A stretch of 64,000 nucleotides of DNA. Source: Escherichia coli. Lineage in GTDB: Bacteria; Pseudomonadota; Gammaproteobacteria; Enterobacterales; Enterobacteriaceae. Under the pieces are notes generated by a model. That model was not told the DNA's origin. It made no database searches and was given only the letters and a program-made list of their open reading frames with translations. The stretch lies in NCBI RefSeq assembly GCF_009931435.1, contig NZ_CP043414.1. The stretch is one strand, 5' to 3'. A program made the position numbers and the translations under genes. Every line of letters starts with the position of its first letter. Positions within the stretch are counted from its first letter, which is position 1. Below are positions 10,030 to 25,287 of the stretch, piece by piece.

Positions 10030-11103
10030 TTACGAAAGCCCGCTCCCCGCAAGGACTGACGCCAGATACTTTCTGTCCATGGCTGCTTTTCGCATCTTAC
10101 GTCTTAACCCTGCCTTGAATACCTTATCATTCGTCAAAATATTAATTGCGATGTGCCGTATCCCTGAAAATAATTCTGCTGCATTTCCTCTTCTTATTTT
10201 GCAGTCGTCTTCATTCATTACCACGTCCAGACGCCAGTGCAGCTTATTCTCCACGTGCCAGTGGTTTCGGATTGCTGTGGCGAACTTCTCTGCGGTTAAA
10301 TCAGCAGAACTGATATAATATCTGACCGTCATTTCTGGCTCTTTCTTTTGTTCTGCTATTATTGACCGAAAGGAGACTGCCACGCATAATTTCTTCAGAC
10401 CTTTCCATTCAAACGTGAAATCAATAAGTTCATCAGGGACATCGCAAACAATGTGAAGACGGATTTCTTCTCTGCCGTGACTCTTTTCACTAATTGCGTA
10501 ACTGTCATGCTCTGGATTATTTAATTCTTTCAGCGGAAATTTTTCCTCGAAGCCTTTATTTAGCCGCCCCTGGTTTCCTTTTACAGCGAATAAATAATCA
10601 CCTCCCTGTTTTTGTATCTTCTCTGCAATATCTTTCTGGCAACCCATCGCATCAGTTGTGATGATTTTTCCTTTAATATCCAGCATGTTAAGAAGTTCTG
10701 GGATAGCTGTAATCTCATTGGATTTCTCATCCGTCTTGATCTGTCCGATGACCAGACTGTGCATTGTTGAGAACGCACTAATGACATGAATCGCTCCCCT
10801 GCGGCGACTCTTGTCATAAGAGTGCCGGAGCGTTTTTCCATCAATTGCAATGACGCCTTTATCATCTGAAGAATGGCAGTCACGCATCCAGTTAATAAAG
10901 CACTCGTGAAATTTTGCAGGACTGATACAGGATACAACTCTGGCAATGGTATCGTGAACAGGAATACCATTTTCAAAATCACCATATTGCTTCAAAAAAT
11001 CGAGATGTGTTTCCCCAAAATCCTCTATATCTTCCCAACCTTCTGCACCCGAAATAACGGCGCAAATAGTCAACAGTAGAATATCCGATAATTTATGTTC
11101 CAC
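10030..11103 (-). mobile_element. H-repeat-associated (ISAs1-family) transposase, the H-rpt element classically found at the distal end of E. coli Rhs elements
   Basis: 357 aa protein with DDE-type transposase features, strongly similar to the E. coli H-repeat proteins (YhhI/YbfD type); located directly downstream of the Rhs array. Confidence 0.8.
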
Positions 11104-11295
11104 TTTCTAGGCTTGTCTGTAATCGGGGATAATAGAAATATGTTCCATCAATTTTTTAAGTTCCATTTTGTTCTCCTTAATTATGTAAGGAGTATTTGAT
11201 CATGTATAAGCAATAAAAAACAGCTTCAGGTAATGAGGAATATCTCAATTTTTAAACATAAAATGCGAATTGTTTAGTACAAAAAAGCAGCGTTA

Positions 11296-11416
11296 CGTGA
11301 TCTTTCCCTGCCAGCCCCTCCGGGTTGACCTGCTCCGTCACCCGCAGAACCCTGCACAATATCCAGTCCCTTGCAGGTCATGTCACCCTGCCGCGCCGCC
11401 GGTTTTCCGCTCATGG
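11296..11416 (-). pseudogene. Vestigial rhs 5' end (start codon plus about 80 nt) fused to a short internal rhs fragment
   Basis: Bases 11340-11413 nearly match the first 70-plus nt of both rhs genes (compare 16134-16207 and 22269-22342), and are preceded by ccctccgggttgacctgctccgtcacccg, which also occurs inside rhs at about 15060. Confidence 0.55.
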
Positions 11417-11546: not shown

Positions 11547-11951
11547 TCATTTCATTTTTTTAAAACATACGTTAATGCCATTCACACTTCCACATTCACC
11601 AAAAGCATCAAAATAAATTTCACATTTATTGTTGCCTTTCGAAATGATGCTAACCCCCCATCTTATATTGTTATATTTTTCTTTTCTGAAATACTTCATT
11701 TGCAATAAATCAATTATCTTACCCGCATAGAGATCGCTAAGTTCATTCACCACCACTTTATATCTGTATATTTCATTAAGACCTTCCTTGCTAAGCGGAA
11801 CTAACGTGGTAACATACGATGGAAGATTAACTACCTCTATCGTTTTCACGCTATCTATTCCACACAATTCATTCACTCGCCCCATCCCCAATACCGAACC
11901 AGAAAATAGAGACAATAAAACCATCAAATATTTCATCATAAAAAACCTCAC
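11547..11951 (-). CDS. Putative Rhs immunity protein (RhsI) for the rhs-A C-terminal toxin; has a signal peptide
   Basis: 134 aa, AT-rich, starts at the rhs-A stop codon; N-terminus MKYLMVLLSLFSGSVLG looks like a Sec signal peptide; position is that of an immunity gene. Confidence 0.55.
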   Translation of the reverse strand: MRFFMMKYLMVLLSLFSGSVLGMGRVNELCGIDSVKTIEVVNLPSYVTTLVPLSKEGLNEIYRYKVVVNELSDLYAGKIIDLLQMKYFRKEKYNNIRWGVSIISKGNNKCEIYFDAFGECGSVNGINVCFKKMK

Positions 11952-14900
11952 TATTCTGGCGTACCCGTTATTGTCATCGTCTGCAACGGTCCATCCACCC
12001 GATAAAAAGGCAGTCCACTATGAGCTCCTCTGACACACTCATCTAAAGTTTTCGCCGCACGCGATTCAATTATTGTAATAACCCTTGCCTCTTCTTTATT
12101 ATCATATTTCTTATCCGTCCGACTTAAAAGAGCCATGAAATTTTCTTTATCAAGAAGGTAATACTGTGCATGTGCAAACTCATGCCCCAAACCTAATGCA
12201 GGCGATTGTGATTTCGAGTTTAATTCAGTTGAACAAAATAAAGACGCTCTACTATTCCAATATATCGTCATATTATTCGAATTAAATCTACCATTGGTTC
12301 CTTCAATATACTCTATATTTATAGTTTCTTCAGAGCTTGATAAAAAATCTATAGCATCTTTCATTCGTGAATCTTTTTCTAAATACTTAACAGCCTGATT
12401 AAAATCACTTGGATCACCATTAACCTCGAATTTTAAACCCAAAGAATCTATAAACCGAACAGGGTTTAATGGATATTTATACAGATTCCATTCACCTCTT
12501 AGCCCGATTGGATCCTGCGTGATATACCTCCCCTGCAACGGGTCATAGTACCGGTGACGGTTGTAGTACAGCCCCGACTCCTCATCATACTGCTGCCCTG
12601 GCAGACGGTACGGCTGTTGCAGGTGCTCCGGGTTTTCCTCTCCCAGCAGGTTTCCCCACTCGTCATACTCCCCGCGCCACGCCGTTTCCCCTTCCGGGCT
12701 GATAAGCGCCTGCGGCAGCCCACGGTGGTCACAGTGGTAAAGATGAAGTTTCCTCTCCGGGATGTATTCTTCCTCCATCTGGTTGTTCATCTGTTCCGCC
12801 GTCAGCCCGCACTGCGCAAGCCATGCTTCACTCTCCGCACTCACCGCACCCGCGCGCAGTTCCCGCTCCAGCCTCCCCAGCATCACCGACAGCTCCGCCG
12901 GGAGCGTCACACCCGTGTCCTCCTGCAACACCTCCGCCAGGCTACGGTGCCGCGCCTTCGCCTGTTCGCCATTCTCTGTTTCGATTCTCAGGAGCGGCGT
13001 GAAGCTTCCCGGCTGATAAATCGTCTGGATACGTGTGGTGCCGGTCTGTACCGTCGTCAGCCTGTCACCGTCCCACCCGTACCATGTCTCCTCCGGTTTA
13101 CGCGACAGCGACATCCATCCCGTCAGGTCACGCTCCCGCCGCCACACCCGTTTTCCCGTCCTGCGGCCCAGCGGGTCGTAAAGGTAGCGGCTCTCCACCT
13201 GCGGCTCGCCGTGCTGTATCCGCGTGTAGAACACCAGACGGTGCTGGCTGTCGTAATGGTAGTGGTGGGTGCGCTCGTCGTGCATCCGTATCACCCCTTC
13301 CGGGATACGGTCCGTCTTCTCCGCCAGCCTGCCGTATTCATCGTGGCGGTAGACATAGTGCGCATCTTCCGCGATGCGGTTATCCGGCCACGCCGTGAAG
13401 GTGCTGTCCGGGTGCAGTTCCGGGTCCGGCAGCCGGTTTCCTGCCGGGTCCGTCGCATACGGGATATCAATGTCCAGGTTCGCTGCCGTGGTGTGGACGC
13501 CCGTCAGCCTTCCCGTGTCGCTGTAACGGTACTCCCGGCTCTCCTGCGGGCCGCTGATACGCACCAGTTGCCCGTTATCATTCCACGTATACTCACGGTC
13601 AAGCTGCGGAAGGTTCAGGTGCCTGCTCCGGAGCTGGCCTGTGAGGGTGTATGTGCTGGTCAGTTCATATGCGGCATTACTGCCTGCCATGCTGCCGAAG
13701 CTGCGCACCGTCTCACGGTGCAGCCTGTCCCGCGTGTACTCGACCAGCGGCGTTCCGCCCAGCTTCATCCCCGCAAGATAACCGCTGCCATACGTCAGCC
13801 ACTCCACCGGCGGCAGACCGTCCGGCTCCTGACGGGTCGCCAGCCCCTGTTCGCTGTACGCGTGCCCCGTCTCATGCTCCCACAGCATCTCCCCCGTCTC
13901 CGGGTTCTCCACCGTCTGCCGTTCGCCCGTCAGGCGGCCCTTATCGTCATAGCCGTAGTGGACCGCCACACGGTGGCCTTCACTGGTATGGCTGAGGGTG
14001 GTTAACCACCCGTGCTCATCATACTGCCACTGCTCTGCCGCTTCGCCGTTCACCGTCCGGTGCGTGATGCGGTCCGACGCATCGTAGTGCCAGAGGGTGA
14101 TAAGTCCCTCGTCTTCACTGCGGACAAGCTGCCCTGTGGCGCTGTACCGGTAACGCTGTGTCCGTCCGTCAAAGCCGCGCTGCTCCGTCAGGCGGTCCAC
14201 CGGGTCATACAGGAACGTGGACTGGCTGCCGTTCTCATTAGTCAGCGTGGTGATGCGCCCGGCGGCGTCATACCCCATGCTGCGCGTCAGACCGCCCTGC
14301 GTGGTGCTGATAGCTTTACCCCACGCATCATACTGTGTCTCACTGCGGCTGCCGTTCGGGGCAATGATAGCGGTGAGGTCGCCTGCGGCGCTGTACTCAT
14401 AACGGGTTTCACGCCCCTGCACATCCTTCTGACTGACCAGTTGACCACGCGGGTTATAACTGCTGTAAGTGCTGATGCCTTCTTCCCGGTGAACCGCCGT
14501 CCTCTGCCCGTACCGGTCGTACTCATACCGTGTCGTGTACCCCGAGCAGTCCGTGAAGGCCAGCAGTTGACCGTAGCGGCTCCATGCCATCTGTTTTGTA
14601 CTGCCCGTCGCATCCTGTATCCCTGTCGGCAGCTCACTCGCCGGGTCATCATAGCTGTACCGCGTCGTCTCACCGCTGCGCGAGGTCTCCGCCGCCAGCC
14701 TTCCCTTCTCATCATACTCCCGGCTGCTGCGAAGCCCGTCCGGGTACGTCACTGACGTCACCTGCCGCTGGCTGTTGTAGCCATACCGCACCGTCCTGCC
14801 GTCCGGCCCCGTCACCGCCGTCACCGCGCCCGACGCCATATGCAGGCTGTACTCCGTCCGCCGCCCCGCCGCATCCGTCTGCGCCTTCAGCCTCCCCGCC

Positions 14901-16207
14901 GCATCATACTCGCTGCGGGTGATGCTCCCGTCCGCATGCTCCTTCTTCACCACCCGCTTCAGGCCACCCTCGCCTTCCGTGTACAGCACCTCCCGCCTGT
15001 TCAGGCTGTCCGTGATGGTCACACGGTCCTGCCCGTACTCAAAGCGGTAGGCCAGCCCCTCCGGGTTGACCTGCTCCGTCACCCGACCGGTATCATCATA
15101 CCGGTAGCGGCTCTCCGGCCTCCCCGCATAATGGTGCGCCACCATCCGCCCGGCGTGCTCCGCATCATAAGTAAACCCGCGCACCTGCGTCCCGCTGCGG
15201 TCATACACCGCCAGCAACTCACCGCTGGCCGTGTACGTGTAGCGCGCCAGCGGCGCAGTCGGCTGTTCATCCGGGTATGCCGGGTCGTGTGTCAGCCACA
15301 CCGCCTCCAGCCGGATACCGTTATCGGCACCGTATTCTGTACCGGCGGGCAGCGTGTCGGGGAAAACCTGAGAAGAGGAAACAGAACGGGGACCGGCAGG
15401 GGAAGATAAAGACGTGGCGCGCTGTTTACGGCAGGCTTCCGCCCGCTGCGCCTGCGTGCTCAGCAACAGGTGAAAACGACGGCCCGCACCGTCCGTCCCC
15501 CCCGTCACCGCGCCCGCCACGTCACCCTCCGCTGCCCGGTGAAAGGCCAGCGTCCGACCAAAGCCATCCACCACGCCCGTCAGCACCCGGTATGCGGGCG
15601 GTTCCGGCGGCAGCACCTCGTCCGCCCCCGGCACCCGCTCCGGCCAGCTGAGTATCCACCACGGCCCCTGAAGGCTGTTTGTCGCCAGGTACACATGCGG
15701 ACTCAGGCGAACATCTTCCGGCAGCACCTGCCAGAGCGCGCTTAGCGGCTGCGAACTGTGCTGCTCCGCCCCCCCGCCCCGCGCCAGCCAGAACGACTCG
15801 CTGCGGCTGTAGCTTATCTCGCCGGGAAACAGCGGCTCAAAGTGAATGCTCCTGCCGCCGTTGTCGTTGAGTATCAGTTCCCGCTCATGAACCTGTAAGC
15901 GGATATCGAAGGGCGCTTTCCAGCCGGGGCCGAACACGCCCACCGGCGCGGGCGTCCTGGTCCGGTAACTGCTGTAAGCGCGGGAAAGAATAAACGGCAG
16001 CGGGCCGGGCAGTGCCAGGTCCGTCTCGCCCGGCAGCACCTTCGCACCCAGCACCGGGTTCACCGGGTTAGCATAGGTAATCCCTCCCGGACACACCGAG
16101 CAGGCCACTCCCGTCGGCGCACCTATCAGCACCCCTGCTGAACCCTGCACAATATCCAGTCCCTTGCGGGTCATGTCGCCCTGCCGCGCCGCCGGTTTTC
16201 CGCTCAT
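11951..16207 (-). CDS. Rhs-family polymorphic toxin (distal copy) with PAAR-like N-terminus, YD-repeat shell and a C-terminal domain carrying an HExxH motif
   Basis: 1418 aa; N-terminal [16 protein letters not shown]...VACSVCPGG, many YD repeats, DPIGL demarcation motif, then a unique roughly 160 aa tail containing [10 protein letters not shown]. Confidence 0.9.
12502..16207 (-). repeat. Rhs core repeat, copy A (near-identical to 18628..22342; apparently perfect over about 12502..14060)
   Basis: Identical antisense ORFs at a fixed 6126 bp offset (12554..14005 and 18680..20131, etc.) and direct line-by-line comparison. Confidence 0.85.
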
Positions 16208-16330: not shown

Positions 16331-17299
16331 TCATTGTTTGTTATCAGAAAGTGTTTTATACAGCGGCACATATCCCACGTCTTCCACAAGACTTTGCCCC
16401 TGAGGGCTTAAAAACCAGTCCACTAGTTTTTGTGTTTCCGGTGTCGGCTTTTCGCGGGTGACCATGTAGGCATCCACCACATACGGATAAGTACCGTTGC
16501 GGATATTCTCCACCGTTGGTGCAATACCATTTATTGCCAGCAGCTTAAGATTTGGGCTTATATCCTTATTCATCTGTGTGACATAATAGCGGAAGGTGTA
16601 ACCAATTGAAGGCTGCGTATTCCGGTAGGCAATTACTTTGGTTAACACTCCATTCATAAGGCTTACTTCTGTAGATGTTCTGGCGGGTAGCATCGGTGTC
16701 TCTTTCATCACCTTTGCCAGCATCACCGTCTGGCTACCGGAATCTTCCGGACGCTGCCAGACCTGAATGCGCTCATCACTGCCACCAACCTGACTCCAGC
16801 GGGTGATTTTACCGCTGAAGATATCCCGAACCTGCTGTTCAGTAAAAGAACTGACCGGATTACTGGCGTTAACGATAAAAACAAAGGCTTCGTGGGCGAA
16901 GGGGGTATAAACCAGTTTCACCCCGGCATCGGCAGCCCGTTGTTTTTGTCCTGCGGAAGGCTGGGCAACAAAAATAACATCGGCCTGGCGCTTTATGAGA
17001 TCATTATAGGCTTCTGGTGTACGAGTCGGATACATATAATTCAAACCCGGATCTTGATGGTTATCCCCGGGGATCAAATATCGGTAAGCTGAAGCATACA
17101 GTGGATATAACGCGGTTGCACCACATACCCGGGGCCATTTATTCGAGTTATCAGTGTAGCGTAAAGTGGGTTCTCCTCGTATATTGGTTTTCTCCCAACT
17201 CACTGTTTCTTTTACGCTGTTATCGCCCCCGCCGTCTACACATCCTGACATTAATACCGTCATATAAAATAATACTGGTAACAGGCCCACCCTACGCAT
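16331..17299 (-). CDS. PstS-like (phosphate-binding-protein fold) lipoprotein; start uncertain, ORF extends to 17365
   Basis: 344 aa ORF; probable start MRRVGLLPVLFYMTVLMSGC with lipobox; AT-rich; lies between the two Rhs modules. Confidence 0.6.
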   Translation of the reverse strand: MRRVGLLPVLFYMTVLMSGCVDGGGDNSVKETVSWEKTNIRGEPTLRYTDNSNKWPRVCGATALYPLYASAYRYLIPGDNHQDPGLNYMYPTRTPEAYNDLIKRQADVIFVAQPSAGQKQRAADAGVKLVYTPFAHEAFVFIVNASNPVSSFTEQQVRDIFSGKITRWSQVGGSDERIQVWQRPEDSGSQTVMLAKVMKETPMLPARTSTEVSLMNGVLTKVIAYRNTQPSIGYTFRYYVTQMNKDISPNLKLLAINGIAPTVENIRNGTYPYVVDAYMVTREKPTPETQKLVDWFLSPQGQSLVEDVGYVPLYKTLSDNKQ

Positions 17300-17627
17300 A
17301 CAATGATTTAATAAATACGCCATATACCTCACTCTAAAATATTGATTATATAAATACATATGCATAATTATATTTACATCAAATTCTGAATGAACAATTT
17401 AAATTTAGAGAAAGTGAAATTTAATTTTTCGATACTTCCGCATACATATTCCCCTCGCTAAAAAATCATCATTCCACAATCAATCATTAATTACAACTCA
17501 ATATACATCATTTAACTTTCATTAAACTCGCAATTTATTATTACATTGTAGCCATTATGAACTGTCATCACGCACACACTCTACATACACATTAGAAACA
17601 ATATAACCCCATGAGCCATCCTCCGTT

Positions 17628-18074
17628 TCAATACTTAGTGCAGCGTGTCTTAAGGAAATTAGAAGCCACAACATCAATCTTTTCTTTTAAGACTAAATCA
17701 TCCACATAATCACAAGACAAATAGAAGTCATTACCATCGGCCATTATAAATATCCTCATAGGTAAAGATTTATCATTATCAACATGAGCATTCGTAATAA
17801 TCCAATAATAAGGAAATCTAACATTTTTTGTAGGAATACCCAATAAATCATAAGCTTTATTATTATATTCTATCGCTCCCTTAACAAACGTTGGTTTGAC
17901 CTCCTTACCAATAATGCGATGCGACGTATATTCTTCCTTCTCAGCAAACGATTGCATTAATGCCCATATAGGTTTATTTGCCAGCTCACCGTGATGAAAA
18001 ATCCGATAAAAATACACTCCTAAAAAAAATATTAAGCCTAAGCAAACCAATACCATGAGGCAGTTCTTACTCAT
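17628..18074 (-). CDS. Putative Rhs immunity protein (RhsI) for the rhs-B C-terminal toxin; N-terminal membrane anchor
   Basis: 148 aa, AT-rich, overlaps the rhs-B stop by 4 nt; N-terminal hydrophobic helix [18 protein letters not shown]. Confidence 0.55.
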
Positions 18075-21000
18075 TGATTAAAATCCGTAAAATTAGAAGG
18101 AACAGGGCCATTCTCAGGTGAAAACAATGGAGATGTATTTGATACTCGTGATGCTATCATTTCTACAGTAGCAGGAAGATACATTGGCATTCCATTATCA
18201 CCACCTAGCGGATCAGTTGAAGTTAAAATTTCATTTATTGAATCTACTGAGACTCCCGCATGCAACATTGCCTCAATAACCATTGTTGCACAATTGTGCG
18301 TAAAATAGTTATAGTCACTTCTATCTACTTTATATTTTTCATCAATGTACTTAATCATTGCTTTCTCTTGTTCTGGCGTGGTTTTAATTGTATATATCCT
18401 CGTGCTTCTACGTTGTGCTTGTTCAGTTAAATAAGCTATGACACTCCCTCCACGTGGGGTAGCGGTTCCATAGCTATATACCCCTTTTCCAGTAAATGCC
18501 ATCGCAGAATGCCCTAATGGATTACCACTCGTGGGTCCCCCAGCAAAAATAAGGGTATCCAAACCAAGTGGATCTATATTTATAGTTGGATTCCACGGAT
18601 ATTTATAAAGATTCCATCCCCCCGCAAGCCCGATTGGATCCTGCGTGATATACCTCCCCTGCAACGGGTCATAGTACCGGTGACGGTTGTAGTACAGCCC
18701 CGACTCCTCATCATACTGCTGCCCTGGCAGACGGTACGGCTGTTGCAGGTGCTCCGGGTTTTCCTCTCCCAGCAGGTTTCCCCACTCGTCATACTCCCCG
18801 CGCCACGCCGTTTCCCCTTCCGGGCTGATAAGCGCCTGCGGCAGCCCACGGTGGTCACAGTGGTAAAGATGAAGTTTCCTCTCCGGGATGTATTCTTCCT
18901 CCATCTGGTTGTTCATCTGTTCCGCCGTCAGCCCGCACTGCGCAAGCCATGCTTCACTCTCCGCACTCACCGCACCCGCGCGCAGTTCCCGCTCCAGCCT
19001 CCCCAGCATCACCGACAGCTCCGCCGGGAGCGTCACACCCGTGTCCTCCTGCAACACCTCCGCCAGGCTACGGTGCCGCGCCTTCGCCTGTTCGCCATTC
19101 TCTGTTTCGATTCTCAGGAGCGGCGTGAAGCTTCCCGGCTGATAAATCGTCTGGATACGTGTGGTGCCGGTCTGTACCGTCGTCAGCCTGTCACCGTCCC
19201 ACCCGTACCATGTCTCCTCCGGTTTACGCGACAGCGACATCCATCCCGTCAGGTCACGCTCCCGCCGCCACACCCGTTTTCCCGTCCTGCGGCCCAGCGG
19301 GTCGTAAAGGTAGCGGCTCTCCACCTGCGGCTCGCCGTGCTGTATCCGCGTGTAGAACACCAGACGGTGCTGGCTGTCGTAATGGTAGTGGTGGGTGCGC
19401 TCGTCGTGCATCCGTATCACCCCTTCCGGGATACGGTCCGTCTTCTCCGCCAGCCTGCCGTATTCATCGTGGCGGTAGACATAGTGCGCATCTTCCGCGA
19501 TGCGGTTATCCGGCCACGCCGTGAAGGTGCTGTCCGGGTGCAGTTCCGGGTCCGGCAGCCGGTTTCCTGCCGGGTCCGTCGCATACGGGATATCAATGTC
19601 CAGGTTCGCTGCCGTGGTGTGGACGCCCGTCAGCCTTCCCGTGTCGCTGTAACGGTACTCCCGGCTCTCCTGCGGGCCGCTGATACGCACCAGTTGCCCG
19701 TTATCATTCCACGTATACTCACGGTCAAGCTGCGGAAGGTTCAGGTGCCTGCTCCGGAGCTGGCCTGTGAGGGTGTATGTGCTGGTCAGTTCATATGCGG
19801 CATTACTGCCTGCCATGCTGCCGAAGCTGCGCACCGTCTCACGGTGCAGCCTGTCCCGCGTGTACTCGACCAGCGGCGTTCCGCCCAGCTTCATCCCCGC
19901 AAGATAACCGCTGCCATACGTCAGCCACTCCACCGGCGGCAGACCGTCCGGCTCCTGACGGGTCGCCAGCCCCTGTTCGCTGTACGCGTGCCCCGTCTCA
20001 TGCTCCCACAGCATCTCCCCCGTCTCCGGGTTCTCCACCGTCTGCCGTTCGCCCGTCAGGCGGCCCTTATCGTCATAGCCGTAGTGGACCGCCACACGGT
20101 GGCCTTCACTGGTATGGCTGAGGGTGGTTAACCACCCGTGCTCATCATACTGCCACTGCTCTGCCGCTTCGCCGTTCACCGTCCGGTGCGTGATGCGGTC
20201 CGACGTATCGTAGTGCCAGAGGGTGATAAGCCCCTCGTCTTCACTGCGGACAAGCTGCCCTGCGGCGCTGTACCGGTAACGCTGTGTCCTGCCATCAAAG
20301 CCGCGCTGCTCCGTCAGGCGGTCCAGCACATCATAGGTAAACTCACTCCGGCTGCCGTTCTCGTTGGTCAGCACGGTGATGCGCCCGGCGGCGTCATACC
20401 CCATGCTGCGCGTCAGCCCGCCCTGCGTGGTGCTGACGGCCTTTCCCCACGCATCATACTGTGTCTCACTGCGGCTGCCGTCCGGGGCAATGATAGCGGT
20501 GAGGTCGCCTGCGGCGCTGTACTCATAACGGGTTTCACGCCCCTGCACATCCTTCTGACTGACCAGTTGACCACGCGGGTTATAACTGCTGTAAGTGCTG
20601 ATGCCTTCTTCCCGGTGAACCGCCGTCCTCTGCCCGTACCGGTCGTACTCATACCGTGTCGTGTACCCCGAGCAGTCCGTGAAGGCCAGCAGTTGACCGT
20701 AGCGGCTCCATGCCATCTGTTTTGTACTGCCCGTCGCATCCTGTATCCCTGTCGGCAGCTCACTCGCCGGGTCATCATAGCTGTACCGCGTCGTCTCACC
20801 GCTGCGTGAGGTCTCCGCCGCCAGCCTTCCCTTCTCGTCATACTCCCGGCTGCTGCGCAGCCCGTCCGGGTACGTCACTGACGTCACCTGCCGCTGGCTG
20901 TTGTAGCCATACCGCACCGTCCTGCCGTCCGGCCCCGTCACCGCCGTCACCGCGCCCGACGCCATATGTATCCGGTACTCCGTCCGCCGTCCCGCCGCAT

Positions 21001-22342
21001 CCGTCTGCGCCTTCAGCCTCCCCGCCTCATCATACCCGCTGCGGGTGATGCTCCCGTCCGCATGCTCCTTCTTCACCACACGCTTCAGGCCACCCTCGCC
21101 CTCCGTGTACAGCACCTCCCGCCTGTTCAGGCTGTCCGTGATGGTCACACGGTCCTGCCCGTACTCAAAGCGGTAGTCCAGTCCCTCCGGGTTGACCTGC
21201 TCCGTCACCCGCCCGGTATCATCATACCGGTAGCGGCTCTCCGGCCTCCCCGCATAATGGTGCGCCACCATCCGCCCGGCGTGCTCCGCATCATAAGTAA
21301 ACCCGCGCACCTGCGTCCCGCTGCGGTCATACACCGCCAGCAACTCACCGCTGGCCGTGTACGTGTAGCGCGCCAGCGGCGCAGTCGGCTGTTCATCCGG
21401 GTATGCCGGGTCGTGTGTCAGCCACACCGCCTCCAGACGGATACCGTTATCGGCACCGTATTCTGTACCGGCGGGCAGCGTGTCGGGGAAAACCTGAGAA
21501 GAGGAAACAGAACGGGGACCGGCAGGGGAAGATAAAGACGTGGCGCGCTGTTTACGGAAGGCTTCCGCCCGCTGCGCCTGCGTGCTCAGCAACAGGTGAA
21601 AACGACGGCCCGCACCGTCCGTCACCCCCGTCACCGCGCCCGCCACGTCACCCTCTGCCACCCGGTGGAAAGTCATCGTCCGACCAAAGCCATCCACCAC
21701 GCCCGTCAGTACCCGGTATGCGGGTGGCTCCGGCGGCAGCACCTCGTCCACTTCCGGCACCCGCTCCGGCCAGCCGAGCACCAGCCACTGCCCGGTTGTG
21801 CTGACAGCCATCATATAGGTGTGTGGACTCAGGCGGACCGCTTCCGGCAGCGCCCGCCAGAACCGCGCAAGCGGGTGTCCTTTATGCTGTTTCAGCACCC
21901 CGCCCCGCGCCAGCCAGAACGACTCGCTGCGGCTGTAGCTTATCTCGCCGGGAAACAGGGGTTCAAAGTGGATGCTCCGGCCACCGCTGTCGTTAAGTAT
22001 CAGTTCACGCTCACAAATCTGTAAGCGGATGTCGGAGGGGGCTTTCCAGCCGGGGCCGAATATCCCCACCGGGGCTGGCGTCTTCGTCCGGTAACTGCTG
22101 TAGGCGCGGAAAAGGATGAACGGCAACGGGCCGGATAGTGCCAGGTCGGTTTCAGCAGGCAGTACCTTCGCTCCCAGCAGCGGGTTTACCGGATTGCCAT
22201 ATTTCGGCGTGGCTTCCCCTGTGGGACACACCGAGCAGGCAACCCCCGTCGGCGCACCTATCAGCACCCCTGCTGAACCCTGCACAATATCCAGTCCCTT
22301 GCGGGTCATGTCACCCTGCCGCGCCGCCGGTTTTCCGCCCAT
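18071..22342 (-). CDS. Rhs-family polymorphic toxin (vgrG-proximal copy) with PAAR-like N-terminus and a C-terminal domain with a His...Cys pattern (possible permuted papain-like hydrolase)
   Basis: 1423 aa; same architecture as the other rhs; after DPIGL the tail contains GHSAMAF...YSYG...[12 protein letters not shown]. Confidence 0.9.
18628..22342 (-). repeat. Rhs core repeat, copy B (near-identical to 12502..16207)
   Basis: See copy A; N-terminal 250 codons are more diverged, the central and 3' core is almost identical. Confidence 0.85.
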
Positions 22343-22417: not shown

Positions 22418-24559
22418 TCAAAATTGCCGCATATCCGGCATTCCGGGGGGTAAATCTTTCGGCACAGGCGCATCCGGCACAGGTTGTGTGGCACCACAGT
22501 TCCAGTTAATCACCGGCGCATCACCGTTCACATCCGACTCCCCTTCCAGATGAATGTGCGTACCATTAAGAAATATGCTTCCGTCCTTCGTCAGCACCAG
22601 CCTTGCCTTACCACAGCAGAGTTCAAGATGCTCACCGGCAGAATAAACTGCTGTTTGTCCGGTGTTTTCCTTCATCGTCTTGCCCACCGAGAAGGTGACG
22701 TTATTCCCTACATTGACGCTGTAGCCCATTCCCACCATCAGTGATTTATGCAGCCCTACCTGTGAGGACTGCAACAACGCCACCGAGGTATTCATAATGC
22801 CGCCTACCGTCGTCTGGTAAGCCACGCCCACCGTCAGCGCACGAATGATCCCCACCTTTTCAACCTGGTTTGATCCCACTTTGATAATCTGGTTACTGCC
22901 CACCGTTTCCACCTGGTTGACACCAACCGTCTGTATCTGATTAACGCCAATGTTCTGGATCTGGTTATTGGTAACGGTGATCGCCTGGTTGTTACCTATT
23001 TTTTCGGCATGGTTGTTTATCACATCAGTGGTGCGGTTATTCAGCACCTCGGTGTTCATGTTCTTCTGCGCGTGGATGTAGACCTGTTCTTTCCCTGTCG
23101 CATCGTCAAACTTCAGTTCATTAAACCCGCTGCCCTTATAGGTTTTCGAACGAATGGTCATCTGCGTCTTTGTTCCCGGCAGGCTGCCGGGGGTGCGGTT
23201 TTCCTGGTGGTAGGTACGCCCCATAATAATCGGCTGGTCCGGATCGCCGTTGAGGAAGTCCACAATGACCTCCTGACCCACACGCGGTATCGCCAGGTTA
23301 CCAAACCCGGTGCCTGCCCACGCCTGTGCCACACGGATCCAGCATGAACTGTCCTGGTTTGACGGGTTATAACGGTCCCAGTTAAATTTCACCCGCACGC
23401 GGCCATGTTCATCACAGAAGATTTCTTCTCCTGCCGGTCCCGTCACGACGGCGCTCTGCGGGCCATCCACCAGCGGTTTCAGCAACGGCTGTGGCCGCCA
23501 TGTTCTGTCTGCCGGTATTACCGCAAAGTGGTTATTCAGCGTGGTACCTGAACCCCTGCGTCCCGGCACCGCCTGCGGCTGCTCGCCGTGCAGTTCACTT
23601 GCCACCACCTGCCATTCCCGGTTCAGGTTCGCCTGCGGATGCCCCGTCAGCGCAATTCGCCGTCCCGGCCATATCTCCGGAGAACGGCTTGTTCCGCGCG
23701 CCACTTCTGCGTTGTTTCGCCAGCCATCCATCTGCCAGCGGGCAAAGTTCTGCCCGTGGGCACCCTTGAAACGTCCGGGGTAGTCATACACTTCATACTG
23801 TGTGCGCTGGTAATCCTGGTACTGGCCTTCCTGATCAAAACGCCCTGCCCAGCCGGGTCGTTTAAAGGTGTAGTCCTTGGTCACCACGGAAGAAGGGCGG
23901 ATTTGTGCGCTGTAGCGGAACTGGCTGATGCATAGGGTGCTCACCTCGGTACGGGTGTTCGGATTCCAGGGGATCTCAAAGGACTCCGGCAGATAACGCA
24001 CGGTGTCGCACAGGACCAGGCTCTGGTCGGTACTTTTTTGCGCGTGCTCCTCATAAAAGAAGATGCCTTCCTCCGCCGCCATCCGGCACAGGAAATCGTA
24101 ATCGGTTTCGCCGTACTGGACACAAAACTCACGGGAAGGATGCGGCTCGCTGAACAGCGGACTCCACTCGGTCACCCCGTTTTCTTTCAGGATCGTCGCG
24201 AGTATGCTTTCGATGTCCTCATTCTGGAAGATACGGAAGTTCTGGCGCAGCCCTGTGCGCCACAGCGGTGGGCATACCTTCATGCTGTACAGCATCTGGT
24301 TTTTGTCGTTCTCCCCCAGTTCAAACCAGGTCACCACACCTTTCACCCGGCGCTGTACGTCATCGCCCTGCCATATCGTCAGGTAGGCCATTTTGTCCAG
24401 CACCTGCGCAAATTCAAGGGAGAGAAACTGCTGGCTGACCAGAGAGAGATCGAGGGAAAAGAGCGAAGAGAGTGACTGGTTCAGATGAAAGGAGACCACC
24501 GCAAACGCGTCCGGTGGCAGGCCGTCCACTTCCAGCGTGAAACGTAATCCGGTTGACAT
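22418..24559 (-). CDS. vgrG: T6SS spike protein VgrG (TssI)
   Basis: 713 aa; gp27/gp5-like VgrG body with a short Pro-rich C-terminal tail; 75 nt upstream of rhs-B. Confidence 0.95.
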   Translation of the reverse strand: MSTGLRFTLEVDGLPPDAFAVVSFHLNQSLSSLFSLDLSLVSQQFLSLEFAQVLDKMAYLTIWQGDDVQRRVKGVVTWFELGENDKNQMLYSMKVCPPLWRTGLRQNFRIFQNEDIESILATILKENGVTEWSPLFSEPHPSREFCVQYGETDYDFLCRMAAEEGIFFYEEHAQKSTDQSLVLCDTVRYLPESFEIPWNPNTRTEVSTLCISQFRYSAQIRPSSVVTKDYTFKRPGWAGRFDQEGQYQDYQRTQYEVYDYPGRFKGAHGQNFARWQMDGWRNNAEVARGTSRSPEIWPGRRIALTGHPQANLNREWQVVASELHGEQPQAVPGRRGSGTTLNNHFAVIPADRTWRPQPLLKPLVDGPQSAVVTGPAGEEIFCDEHGRVRVKFNWDRYNPSNQDSSCWIRVAQAWAGTGFGNLAIPRVGQEVIVDFLNGDPDQPIIMGRTYHQENRTPGSLPGTKTQMTIRSKTYKGSGFNELKFDDATGKEQVYIHAQKNMNTEVLNNRTTDVINNHAEKIGNNQAITVTNNQIQNIGVNQIQTVGVNQVETVGSNQIIKVGSNQVEKVGIIRALTVGVAYQTTVGGIMNTSVALLQSSQVGLHKSLMVGMGYSVNVGNNVTFSVGKTMKENTGQTAVYSAGEHLELCCGKARLVLTKDGSIFLNGTHIHLEGESDVNGDAPVINWNCGATQPVPDAPVPKDLPPGMPDMRQF

Positions 24560-24768: not shown

Positions 24769-25287
24769 TTATGCTTCCAGCGGTGCGCGCCAGTCGTCGG
24801 CACCGGAGGTGCCAGATTTGACGTGTTCCCACTCAATCTTGCGGTAGGCCAGTGAAACTTCGAGCAACTGGGTGAACTCGCGTTTCGCCGGGTCCTGGCA
24901 ATGCGGCATATGCAGTTTCATATCGACAATCGTCGAATCAGTCAGGCGGGTGGTGAAATAATGCTCCTGTTTGCCTTCCACAGATGTACGCCACCAGTGC
25001 AGTTCAGTGGTTGGCAGCATTTCACCGGAGGCCAGTGCGTTGTACATCAGCGGAACCGCTTTGTTCAGCGCCACGGTAAAAATGAACGGCTTGTGAGCAC
25101 GCTGACCCGCAGGCTGACCGGACTGAGGATCGGTCGGGACAGTAACGTTATGCAGGAATTCCTGCACCAGCATCTCGTCTTCGTGCCCCTGCACATAGAT
25201 GTTGCCGACAGAATCAGCGGTAAATGCACCTGCAGTAATATTTCCCTGGGTCTGACCAGTGATGGAGATATAACACGGTGTTGGCAT
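24769..25287 (-). CDS. hcp: T6SS tube protein Hcp (TssD), copy 1
   Basis: 172 aa Hcp-family protein; divergently arranged from tssB. Confidence 0.9.
   Translation of the reverse strand: MPTPCYISITGQTQGNITAGAFTADSVGNIYVQGHEDEMLVQEFLHNVTVPTDPQSGQPAGQRAHKPFIFTVALNKAVPLMYNALASGEMLPTTELHWWRTSVEGKQEHYFTTRLTDSTIVDMKLHMPHCQDPAKREFTQLLEVSLAYRKIEWEHVKSGTSGADDWRAPLEA

Follow-up and report, generated by a model that had tools for sequence, protein, structure and literature searches.

An Escherichia coli Rhs effector ends in a permuted NlpC/P60 domain of the Tox-Act1 group and is paired with a candidate membrane-anchored immunity protein

Tox-Act1, an effector of the SPI-6 type VI secretion system (T6SS) of Salmonella enterica, is a permuted NlpC/P60 phospholipase that cleaves PG and PE both in vitro and in cells (PMC12994826). 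It is toxic solely when targeted to the periplasm, and its toxicity is abolished by either of the substitutions H43A and C151A; the corresponding immunity protein, Imm-Act1, is embedded in the membrane by two transmembrane helices (PMC12994826). Lnb, the founding member of DUF4105, is a periplasmic, cysteine-dependent lipoprotein N-acyltransferase (bioRxiv 10.1101/2024.05.31.596883). We analysed a 64,000-nucleotide stretch of the E. coli contig NZ_CP043414.1 (the window), which encodes an Rhs protein carrying a C-terminal toxin domain of this group. The last 227 residues of the Rhs protein are identical to those of E. coli QMP79959.1, which is named as a Tox-Act1 homologue in the text of a 2026 PLoS Biology paper; despite this, the authors' S3 table lists it in sheet S3D, "DUF4105b (Firmicutes)", and not in the Tox-Act1 sheet (PMC12994826). 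No accession overlap was found between the matches of our toxin family and the S3A list of that paper, because most of the matches are unnamed metagenome proteins. A 2026 publication has already described this family, along with its fold and likely chemistry, and cited this very sequence; the finding opens no new kind of biology. For the compact sub-branch of the toxin, with a His-Cys spacing of 73, and for its putative single-pass immunity family, the activity proposed here is a prediction.

The toxin belongs to a T6SS-1 effector module of E. coli composed of hcp, vgrG and rhs (Table 1). The Rhs protein is composed of an N-terminal region with a PAAR motif, DUF6531, a YD-repeat shell, the RHS core and the toxin tip, in this order. 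The Pfam domains DUF6531, RHS_repeat, TEN_YD-shell and RHS were found on the loci L001 and L002, of 99.5% identity, in which VgrG contains the domains Phage_GPD, Phage_base_V and Gp5_trimer_C. The end of the Rhs core is covered by the NCBIfam models RHS_core and Rhs_assc_core. The YD-repeat shell, the PxxxxDPxGL end of the core, the low-GC tip, the downstream immunity open reading frame and the neighbouring vgrG mark the protein as a polymorphic T6SS effector of the Rhs type. The GC content is 0.64 in the Rhs core, 0.39 in the toxin and 0.33 in the immunity gene.

Table 1 Features of the toxin-immunity locus, with positions in the window
Feature	Position	Strand	Basis
hcp/tssD, T6SS tube protein gene, upstream of vgrG	24769..25287	-	NCBIfam TIGR03344 VI_effect_Hcp1, E=1.7e-61
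vgrG, spike gene, 713 aa, directly upstream of rhs	22418..24559	-	Open reading frame
rhs, complete effector gene, 1423 aa and stop, vgrG-proximal	18071..22342	-	Translation
DPIGL-x17-DPLGL pair (Asp1235, Asp1257), conserved end of Rhs core, presumed aspartyl autoproteolysis site	18560..18640	-	Coordinates checked
Toxin domain of 162 aa, residues 1262-1423, Cys-His enzyme of the permuted NlpC/P60 papain-like type, Tox-Act1/DUF4105 group	18074..18559	-	
Candidate catalytic His1278 codon, in an 11-residue motif	18509..18511	-	His in 150/151 representatives; invariant in alignment A3
Candidate catalytic Cys1351 codon, in THNCATMV, within a 12-residue stretch	18290..18292	-	Cys in 149/149 representatives
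Immunity candidate, 148 aa, overlapping the rhs stop by 4 nt (ATGA)	17628..18074	-	Open reading frame; adjacency to toxin
N-terminal transmembrane anchor of the immunity candidate, residues 5-23	18006..18062	-	Kyte-Doolittle mean 2.53 over 19 residues
Juxtamembrane motif of the immunity candidate, 12 residues, most conserved stretch of the family	17970..18005	-	Alignment of 11 sequences

The core ends in two related motifs, DPIGL (18626..18640) and DPLGL (18560..18574). The first-pass annotation had placed DPIGL within 17628-18628; the motif is present, but it extends 12 nt past the upper bound of that interval. The tail that follows, previously estimated at roughly 170 residues, measures 184 residues past DPIGL and 162 residues past DPLGL. 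In the homologues whose sequence extends over these columns, D-P-x-G-L stands immediately before the toxin domain (D in 134 of 134, G in 138 of 139). Autoproteolytic cleavage that frees the tip is established for Rhs and Tc toxins, and the tip of this protein is therefore probably released by autoproteolysis at DPIGL...DPLGL.

The toxin domain is an NlpC/P60 papain-like enzyme in circularly permuted form, which belongs, at the level of the superfamily, to the group of Tox-Act1, DUF4105/Lnb, TseH and YiiX. The best Pfam match was Lnb_N/DUF4105 (PF13387, E=3.5e-7), covering model positions 92-151 of 175, a third of its length, and weaker matches were obtained to TseH (E=0.05) and PPPDE (E=0.045). 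Only five of 38 family members reached Lnb_N at E<=0.001. The toxin is thus related to DUF4105 and TseH yet poorly captured by either Pfam model, which is how the Tox-Act1 family is delimited. The three-dimensional fold of the domain matches solved permuted NlpC/P60 members. Together with the Lnb_N match, this upholds the permuted papain-fold class that had been suggested for the tip. Searches of PDB sequences with the profiles A1 and A3 returned chance-level matches only, and PADLOC and NCBIfam identified nothing in the tip beyond the Rhs core. A nuclease or deaminase reading of the tip was dropped, since none of the searches returned such a match.

All the motifs noted at first reading, GHSAMAF, YSYG (in VYSYG) and a histidine followed by a cysteine, are present after DPIGL, and the cysteine lies in HNCATMV. 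Conservation was counted in 152 family representatives with a pairwise identity of at most 50%. The pattern of histidine and cysteine is more than chance, because both residues are kept almost without exception (Table 1), and their order, His before Cys, is that of the permuted NlpC/P60 superfamily. Cys1351 is the sole cysteine of the toxin domain. Asn1274, Gly1277, Gly1287, Ser1290 and Arg1312 likewise show essentially no variation among the representatives, and the compact Rhs-borne branch is characterised by invariant N-P-x-G-H, S, R, T-T-P-x-Q and C. The spacing between the histidine and the cysteine ranges from 68 to 80 residues across the family. Enzymes of this kind have a third polar residue of the triad shortly past the histidine, such as Glu81 in TseH, Asn66 in Lnb and His35 in LRAT. 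Candidates for this position are the invariant Ser1290 (His+12) and Ser/Asn/Asp1300 (His+22). Clustering at 50% identity divides the toxin family into at least 642 clusters.

The tip is rare in E. coli, and its DNA had no match in 5,426 complete genomes. The 148-residue protein adjoins the same toxin with 100% identity on 18 contigs, and several assemblies of E. coli carry the pair with 100% identity. Citrobacter portucalensis carries a diverged pair, in which a toxin of 66% identity lies beside an immunity homologue of 46% identity.

The immunity candidate is translationally coupled to Rhs by the ATGA overlap, as read from the gene sequence. It was described by the first-pass annotation as AT-rich with an N-terminal membrane anchor, and both properties were confirmed by its GC content and by the hydropathy of residues 5-23. 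The protein contains one strongly hydrophobic segment and a soluble domain of approximately 115 residues. The anchor is kept as a hydrophobic segment in homologues, and the structural model shows a helix from residue 3 to residue 32. That the N-terminus (LVCLG) is a lipoprotein signal was considered and dropped because the sequence does not have a canonical lipobox, and a signal anchor is more likely. The charge distribution in the family favours an N-in/C-out orientation, from which we infer that the protein is single-pass with its C-terminus outside. Among 11 aligned sequences, with identities down to 20%, Y23, E30, L31 and K34 of the juxtamembrane region are invariant, A32 and P35 are conserved in at least 90%, and nine of the 11 have two cysteines in the C-terminal domain. 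The protein had no match in Pfam, NCBIfam or PADLOC, and a fold search with an AlphaFold2 model of moderate quality (pLDDT 71.6) matched no known fold. The family is previously undescribed and unannotated.

Rhs tips usually act in the cytoplasm, which counts against a periplasmic site of action. In a survey of eight homologue loci, however, the downstream open reading frame encoded a transmembrane anchor, a lipoprotein signal peptide or two transmembrane helices in seven. At a distant locus (L014), this is a 77-residue protein with two transmembrane helices, and the Solimonas homologue is followed by an ankyrin-repeat immunity candidate, though one with a lipoprotein-like signal. The suggestion that the toxin acts at the envelope is supported by these membrane-anchored or lipoprotein-signalled immunity candidates and by the periplasm-restricted toxicity of Tox-Act1 (PMC12994826). 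The chemistry to be expected is one in which lipids have their fatty-acyl ester or amide bonds cleaved or transferred.

The toxin most likely cuts membrane lipids of rival bacteria, and a mechanism can be proposed. The Rhs shell would enclose the 162-residue C-terminal toxin with its His1278/Cys1351 active site. Once in a neighbouring Gram-negative cell, the toxin would act on the membrane from its periplasmic face. The cysteine thiolate would attack a fatty-acyl ester of phosphatidylethanolamine or phosphatidylglycerol to form an acyl-thioester, the hydrolysis of which (phospholipase A activity) would yield lysophospholipids and free fatty acids and result in cell lysis. The producer may be shielded by the co-translated 148-residue protein, the juxtamembrane motif and small periplasmic domain of which would obstruct the toxin at the surface of the membrane. 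We infer the substrate, the mode of immunity and the compartment in which the toxin acts, and assign a probability of approximately 0.62 to the whole reading of an Rhs-borne, Tox-Act1-like phospholipase at the periplasmic membrane face with a membrane-anchored immunity protein.

An enzyme with the same fold and in the same compartment could instead be an acyltransferase or act on lipoproteins and poison envelope biogenesis, either by moving acyl chains onto or off lipoproteins of the target cell, as Lnb does, or by fatty-acylation of lysines, as in MARTX RID. We consider this unlikely: Tox-Act1, the one toxin of the group that has been tested biochemically, behaves as a phospholipase, the toxin does not have the five transmembrane helices of Lnb, and the match to Lnb_N spans only part of the model. 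It is quite unlikely, but conceivable, that the compact Rhs-borne branch, with a His-Cys spacing of about 70-80, is not a phospholipase but has a new target chemistry, for example the removal or transfer of acyl chains on lipoproteins of the target cell (a "reverse Lnb") or fatty-acylation of envelope proteins, which the single-pass immunity family would neutralise at the membrane interface through its invariant Y-x6-E-L-x2-K-P. The NlpC/P60 ancestry and the predicted periplasmic action would also suit a cell-wall hydrolase that cuts peptidoglycan peptide stems, like the T6SS amidases Tse1/Tae; the original annotation of TseH was peptidoglycan hydrolase, and some database entries of the YiiX family are labelled "peptidoglycan peptidase". 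We regard such an activity as improbable.

A PPPDE/DeSI-type isopeptidase or protease with a cytoplasmic protein target is very improbable. PPPDE/DeSI enzymes (Peptidase_C97) share with the toxin the permuted papain-like superfamily, a histidine that precedes the cysteine and, following the histidine, a G-x-Y-S-[FY]-G-like strand; the first-pass annotation had drawn this analogy. As a guide to chemistry it fails, since acyl bonds of lipids are the expected targets rather than those of isopeptidase/deSUMOylase-type proteolysis, and the profile PF05903 gave no significant match from the toxin domain. It is equally hard to credit that the tip has decayed, with its histidine and cysteine motifs as relics and the small open reading frame not an immunity gene. 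Short Rhs fragments and orphan modules make up many of the homologues, and in the closest one (P0001) a tyrosine replaces the catalytic histidine. However, the reading frame studied here is intact and continuous with a full-length Rhs beside vgrG, all the family-invariant residues are present, and the pair is maintained unchanged in several assemblies of E. coli and diverged in Citrobacter.

If the phospholipase reading is correct, the newly recognised permuted NlpC/P60 T6SS toxins that target lipids would come to include effectors encapsulated by Rhs, for which action in the cytoplasm is the usual assumption, and would reach E. coli as well. It would also define a large toxin family (at least 642 clusters) that is partly captured by Pfam, together with a new, unannotated immunity family.

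YiiX/Peptidase_C92 proteins (PDB 2if6, 3kw0) are permuted papain-like and are housekeeping proteins or of unknown function rather than toxins; they gave no significant match in the PDB sequence searches. TseH of the Vibrio cholerae pair TseH/TsiH (PDB 6v98) has a sequence identity of 15% to the toxin and is a stand-alone protein, not an Rhs tip. Lnb of Bacteroides shares with the toxin a cysteine-dependent permuted NlpC/P60 domain of TseH-like structure and a periplasmic location, which is predicted for the toxin. Lnb is, however, a housekeeping enzyme with five transmembrane helices and an Asn-His-Cys triad, whereas the toxin is a soluble tip that forms the last 162 residues of Rhs, is not followed by transmembrane helices and is found in the context of T6SS rather than lipoprotein maturation.

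Tox-Act1 and the toxin are both antibacterial T6SS effector domains with a permuted NlpC/P60 fold and kinship to DUF4105/TseH. Their local motifs are similar, with TTGHGAAF and GNNCTTH around the essential residues of Tox-Act1 and the 11-residue His1278 motif and THNCATM in the toxin, in a comparison of primer-derived stretches of approximately 12 residues around H43 and C151. The primer-derived DNA of Tox-Act1 had no match in E. coli genomes, and the derived peptides had no word match in the protein index. The immunity proteins of both toxins are membrane-associated, but Imm-Act1 contains a pair of transmembrane helices and the protein described here has one helix and a domain of approximately 115 residues. 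The His-Cys spacing is 73 in the toxin, compared with 99 in Lnb and 108 in both Tox-Act1 and TseH, so that the substrate pocket may differ. Whereas Tox-Act1 was studied as a stand-alone protein and its listed homologues include PAAR-fused forms, the toxin of this locus is encapsulated by Rhs.

The rhs array runs along the minus strand in the order hcp, vgrG, first Rhs gene, 148-aa ORF, PstS-like gene, second Rhs gene with its small ORF, and ISAs1 transposase gene. Thousands of E. coli genomes match the mltD-yafC-dkgB flank at 98–99.7% identity, which places the window in the E. coli chromosome. The core of the first Rhs has a GC content of 0.64, against 0.39 for its tip and 0.33 for the 148-aa ORF; the start of this ORF overlaps the Rhs stop codon as ATGA. 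Translation, GC content and hydropathy confirmed the DPIGL motif, the tail with His and Cys motifs and the AT-rich, membrane-anchored small ORF described in the first-pass annotation. The observation is correct, but DPIGL ends 12 nt past the upper bound given there, and the tail of "roughly 170 aa" measures 184 aa from DPIGL or 162 aa from DPLGL.

Features of the rhs array and of loci with toxin or immunity homologues
Feature	Source	Coordinates	Strand	Remarks
hcp	window	24769..25287	-	TIGR03344, E=1.7e-61
vgrG	window	22418..24559	-	between hcp and first Rhs
First Rhs, 1423 aa	window	18071..22342	-	
DPIGL	window	18626..18640	-	end of first Rhs core
Second motif, DPLGL	window	18560..18574	-	in first Rhs
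Small ORF, 148 aa	window	17628..18074	-	directly after first Rhs; immunity candidate
PstS-like lipoprotein gene	window	16331..17365	-	between the two rhs modules
Second Rhs	window	11951..16207	-	
Second Rhs tip	window	~11954..12508	-	GHEFAHA (HExxH)
Small ORF, 134 aa	window	11547..11951	-	after second Rhs; no family match
ISAs1-family (H-repeat) transposase gene	window	10030..11103	-	NF033564, E=2e-124; distal end of rhs array
Interrupted rhs locus	L007, Citrobacter portucalensis CP186530.1	2452..8417		IS3-type (rve) insertion
Downstream ORF	L009, Burkholderia cepacia			lipoprotein signal peptide with upstream start
Downstream ORF	L013			lipoprotein signal peptide
Downstream ORF	L012, Solimonas			ankyrin-repeat protein, lipoprotein-like signal
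Two-TM ORF, 76 aa	L012, Solimonas	11146..11376		after distant toxin homologue
Downstream ORF, 77 aa	L014	7612..7845		two TM helices; after distant toxin homologue

The PstS-family/PBP_like_2 protein matches TIGR02136 below the curated cut-off (E=3.7e-37) and carries a lipoprotein-type signal, VLMSGC. In each of the six loci recovered from E. coli and metagenomes, its gene comes after the immunity gene. The cores of the two Rhs proteins are 94–95% identical over ~3.75 kb, and their tips differ. The second tip weakly matches Pfam Peptidase_M91 "Effector protein" (E=0.0014), and together with the 134-aa ORF it probably constitutes a zinc-metallopeptidase toxin and its immunity gene.

A word-indexed search with the tip of the first Rhs (residues 1262–1423) returned only six relatives, from which a profile was made. 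Among 1.84 billion cluster representatives, the profile matched 642 proteins at E≤0.001, 406 of them at E≤1e-10. The domain is C-terminal in almost all of the 642, many of which are Rhs proteins or Rhs fragments. Residue counts were taken from the best 152 of the 642 matches, aligned to the profile. The candidate catalytic residues His1278 (150/151) and Cys1351 (149/149) are conserved, as are Asn1274 (150/150), Gly1277 (151/151), Gly1287 (150/152), Ser1290 (150/152), Arg1312 (152/152), Thr1321 (146/152) and Gln1325 (147/152). The His–Cys spacing ranges from 68 to 80 residues and is 73 in the window protein; the His...Cys pattern is meaningful. The D-P-x-G-L motif precedes the domain wherever a homologue reaches that far (Asp 134/134), and the family is therefore overwhelmingly tethered to Rhs/YD proteins. 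The sole His exception among the 151 representatives is the closest non-E. coli homologue, a 219-residue metagenomic Rhs fragment (P0001) with a 66% identical tip, in which Tyr replaces the His (LGYSAMAF); the fragment may represent an orphan tip in decay.

By fold and superfamily, the toxin domain belongs with high confidence to the circularly permuted NlpC/P60 papain-like enzymes, among which it falls in the YiiX/TseH/DUF4105 branch. The Cys-containing half matches Pfam Lnb_N (PF13387, formerly DUF4105) at E=3.5e-7 to 4.6e-7, whereas Peptidase_C97/PPPDE (E=0.045–0.065) and TseH (E=0.05–0.07) stay sub-threshold. Lnb_N reaches E≤0.001 in five of 38 diverse family members, and PPPDE or TseH in none, so the family is related to DUF4105 yet not really covered by that model. 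The family alignment gave a confident AlphaFold2 model (pLDDT 84.3, pTM 0.84). Its Foldseek matches in AFDB50 are proteins associated with Rhs or labelled "DUF4105 / Lnb N-terminal domain"; they include proteins of Salmonella enterica subsp. salamae (45% identical) and the tips of further Rhs proteins from E. coli (27–28% identical). No sequence or structure search of the tip gave a nuclease, deaminase or other toxin fold. The permuted papain-fold class proposed in the first-pass annotation, and its preference against a nuclease, thus stand; its PPPDE/DeSI-like branch was imprecise, since the domain is not specifically PPPDE-like.

The immunity candidate has no match in Pfam, NCBIfam or PADLOC and contains one strongly hydrophobic segment, residues 5–23. 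Twelve homologues were found. An identical E. coli protein occurs on 18 contigs, always directly after the same toxin, and a 46%-identical homologue follows a 66%-identical toxin in C. portucalensis. In that locus, the insertion truncates the Rhs core and is followed by a 236-aa remnant with the homologous toxin and then the 138-aa immunity homologue; it is an orphaned toxin–immunity module made by IS insertion. More distant family members are encoded after toxin homologues in Stenotrophomonas (L010) and a metagenome bin (L015). The family keeps the N-terminal hydrophobic helix, followed at once by an invariant Y-x6-E-L-x2-K(P) motif, and nine of 11 members have two Cys in the C-terminal domain. 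For most members, the count of N-terminal Lys and Arg is higher than the net charge that follows the helix, and the positive-inside rule therefore favours a predicted N-in/C-out topology. An immunity candidate predicted to reside in the envelope is present in seven of eight sampled toxin-homologue loci; in the eighth, L016, no candidate ORF was found on the same strand. This independently supports action in the periplasm or at the membrane across the toxin family, as the membrane anchor had hinted at the outset. The two-TM ORFs of 76–77 aa in L012 and L014 resemble the published Imm-Act1, unlike the single-pass family of the window, and three or more unrelated types of envelope immunity protein may serve the toxin family.

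Tox-Act1 is an effector of the Salmonella SPI-6 T6SS built on a permuted NlpC/P60 core. In E. coli it is toxic in the periplasm, not in the cytoplasm; H43A or C151A abolishes its activity, and Imm-Act1, a protein with two TM helices, neutralises it (PMC12994826, PLoS Biol 2026; preprint PMC11996579). Its cleavage of PG and PE was shown in vitro; in vivo, it causes lysophospholipids and free fatty acids to build up, and intoxicated cells lyse while retaining their rod shape (PMC12994826). HHpred relates Tox-Act1 to DUF4105 and to TseH, for which phospholipase activity was shown (PMC12994826).

The following mechanism is the most probable for the window toxin, for which we put phospholipase chemistry at a probability of about 0.6. 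The VgrG-mounted Rhs cage would be fired into a neighbouring cell. The DPxGL aspartyl autoprotease would then presumably free the tip of the first Rhs, a step that is well established in Rhs and Tc toxins. At the periplasmic membrane surface, a Cys1351 thiolate activated by His1278 would attack phospholipid acyl esters via an acyl-thioester, and the resulting lysophospholipids would lead to lysis. The single-pass immunity protein would protect the producer by blocking the enzyme at the membrane interface. The main rival, an Lnb- or RID-like activity that transfers acyl chains or is directed at lipoproteins, is unlikely. Lnb, the founder of DUF4105, is a periplasmic Cys-dependent lipoprotein N-acyltransferase with the triad Asn66-His49-Cys148, modelled on Glu81-His64-Cys172 of TseH (bioRxiv 10.1101/2024.05.31.596883). 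Peptidoglycan hydrolysis, by an enzyme of the same NlpC/P60 fold, is less probable still, and a PPPDE-type isopeptidase, with its sub-threshold Pfam match, is very improbable.

Novelty is modest, and lies in a compact, Rhs-borne and uncharacterised sub-branch that comprises at least 642 clusters, in a single-pass immunity family that lacks annotation and has a striking motif next to its membrane helix, and in the rarity of the tip in E. coli. Megablast of the DNA of tip and immunity gene (window 17400..18587) against 5,426 complete genomes of E. coli in RefSeq gave no match; the protein pair nevertheless occurs in four or more E. coli assemblies elsewhere (GCA_013900085.1, GCA_037230235.1, GCA_009898965.1 and GCA_902709095.2). 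The module is rare in E. coli and was probably acquired recently.

This kind of toxin was published in 2026, with the identical sequence cited: QMP79959.1, a "Tox-Act1 homolog encoded by E. coli", exemplifies a conflict-system context and is listed in the S3 table (1422 aa, DUF6531+RHS_repeat...+RHS+DUF4105, CP057959.1:4081578-4085846; PMC12994826). Its locus, reached via the immunity protein, shares 99.5% identity with the window across 12.4 kb, and the last 227 residues of the first Rhs are identical, so the whole toxin domain is the same. The exact domain is thus already in the literature, there solely as an in-silico listing. The text places QMP79959.1 in the Tox-Act1 clade, whereas the S3 table has it in sheet S3D, "DUF4105b (Firmicutes)" (PMC12994826), which leaves its clade assignment unsettled within the source. 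The stretches of Tox-Act1 derived from published mutagenic primers, VETTGHGAAFVS around H43 and DVTGNNCTTHSVE around C151 (PMC12994826), resemble the His and Cys motifs of the window toxin, but the His–Cys spacing is 108 in Tox-Act1 and 73 in the window. Based on this sequence comparison, we treat the window toxin as a putative compact sister branch within the Tox-Act1/DUF4105 group rather than as a proven Tox-Act1 orthologue.
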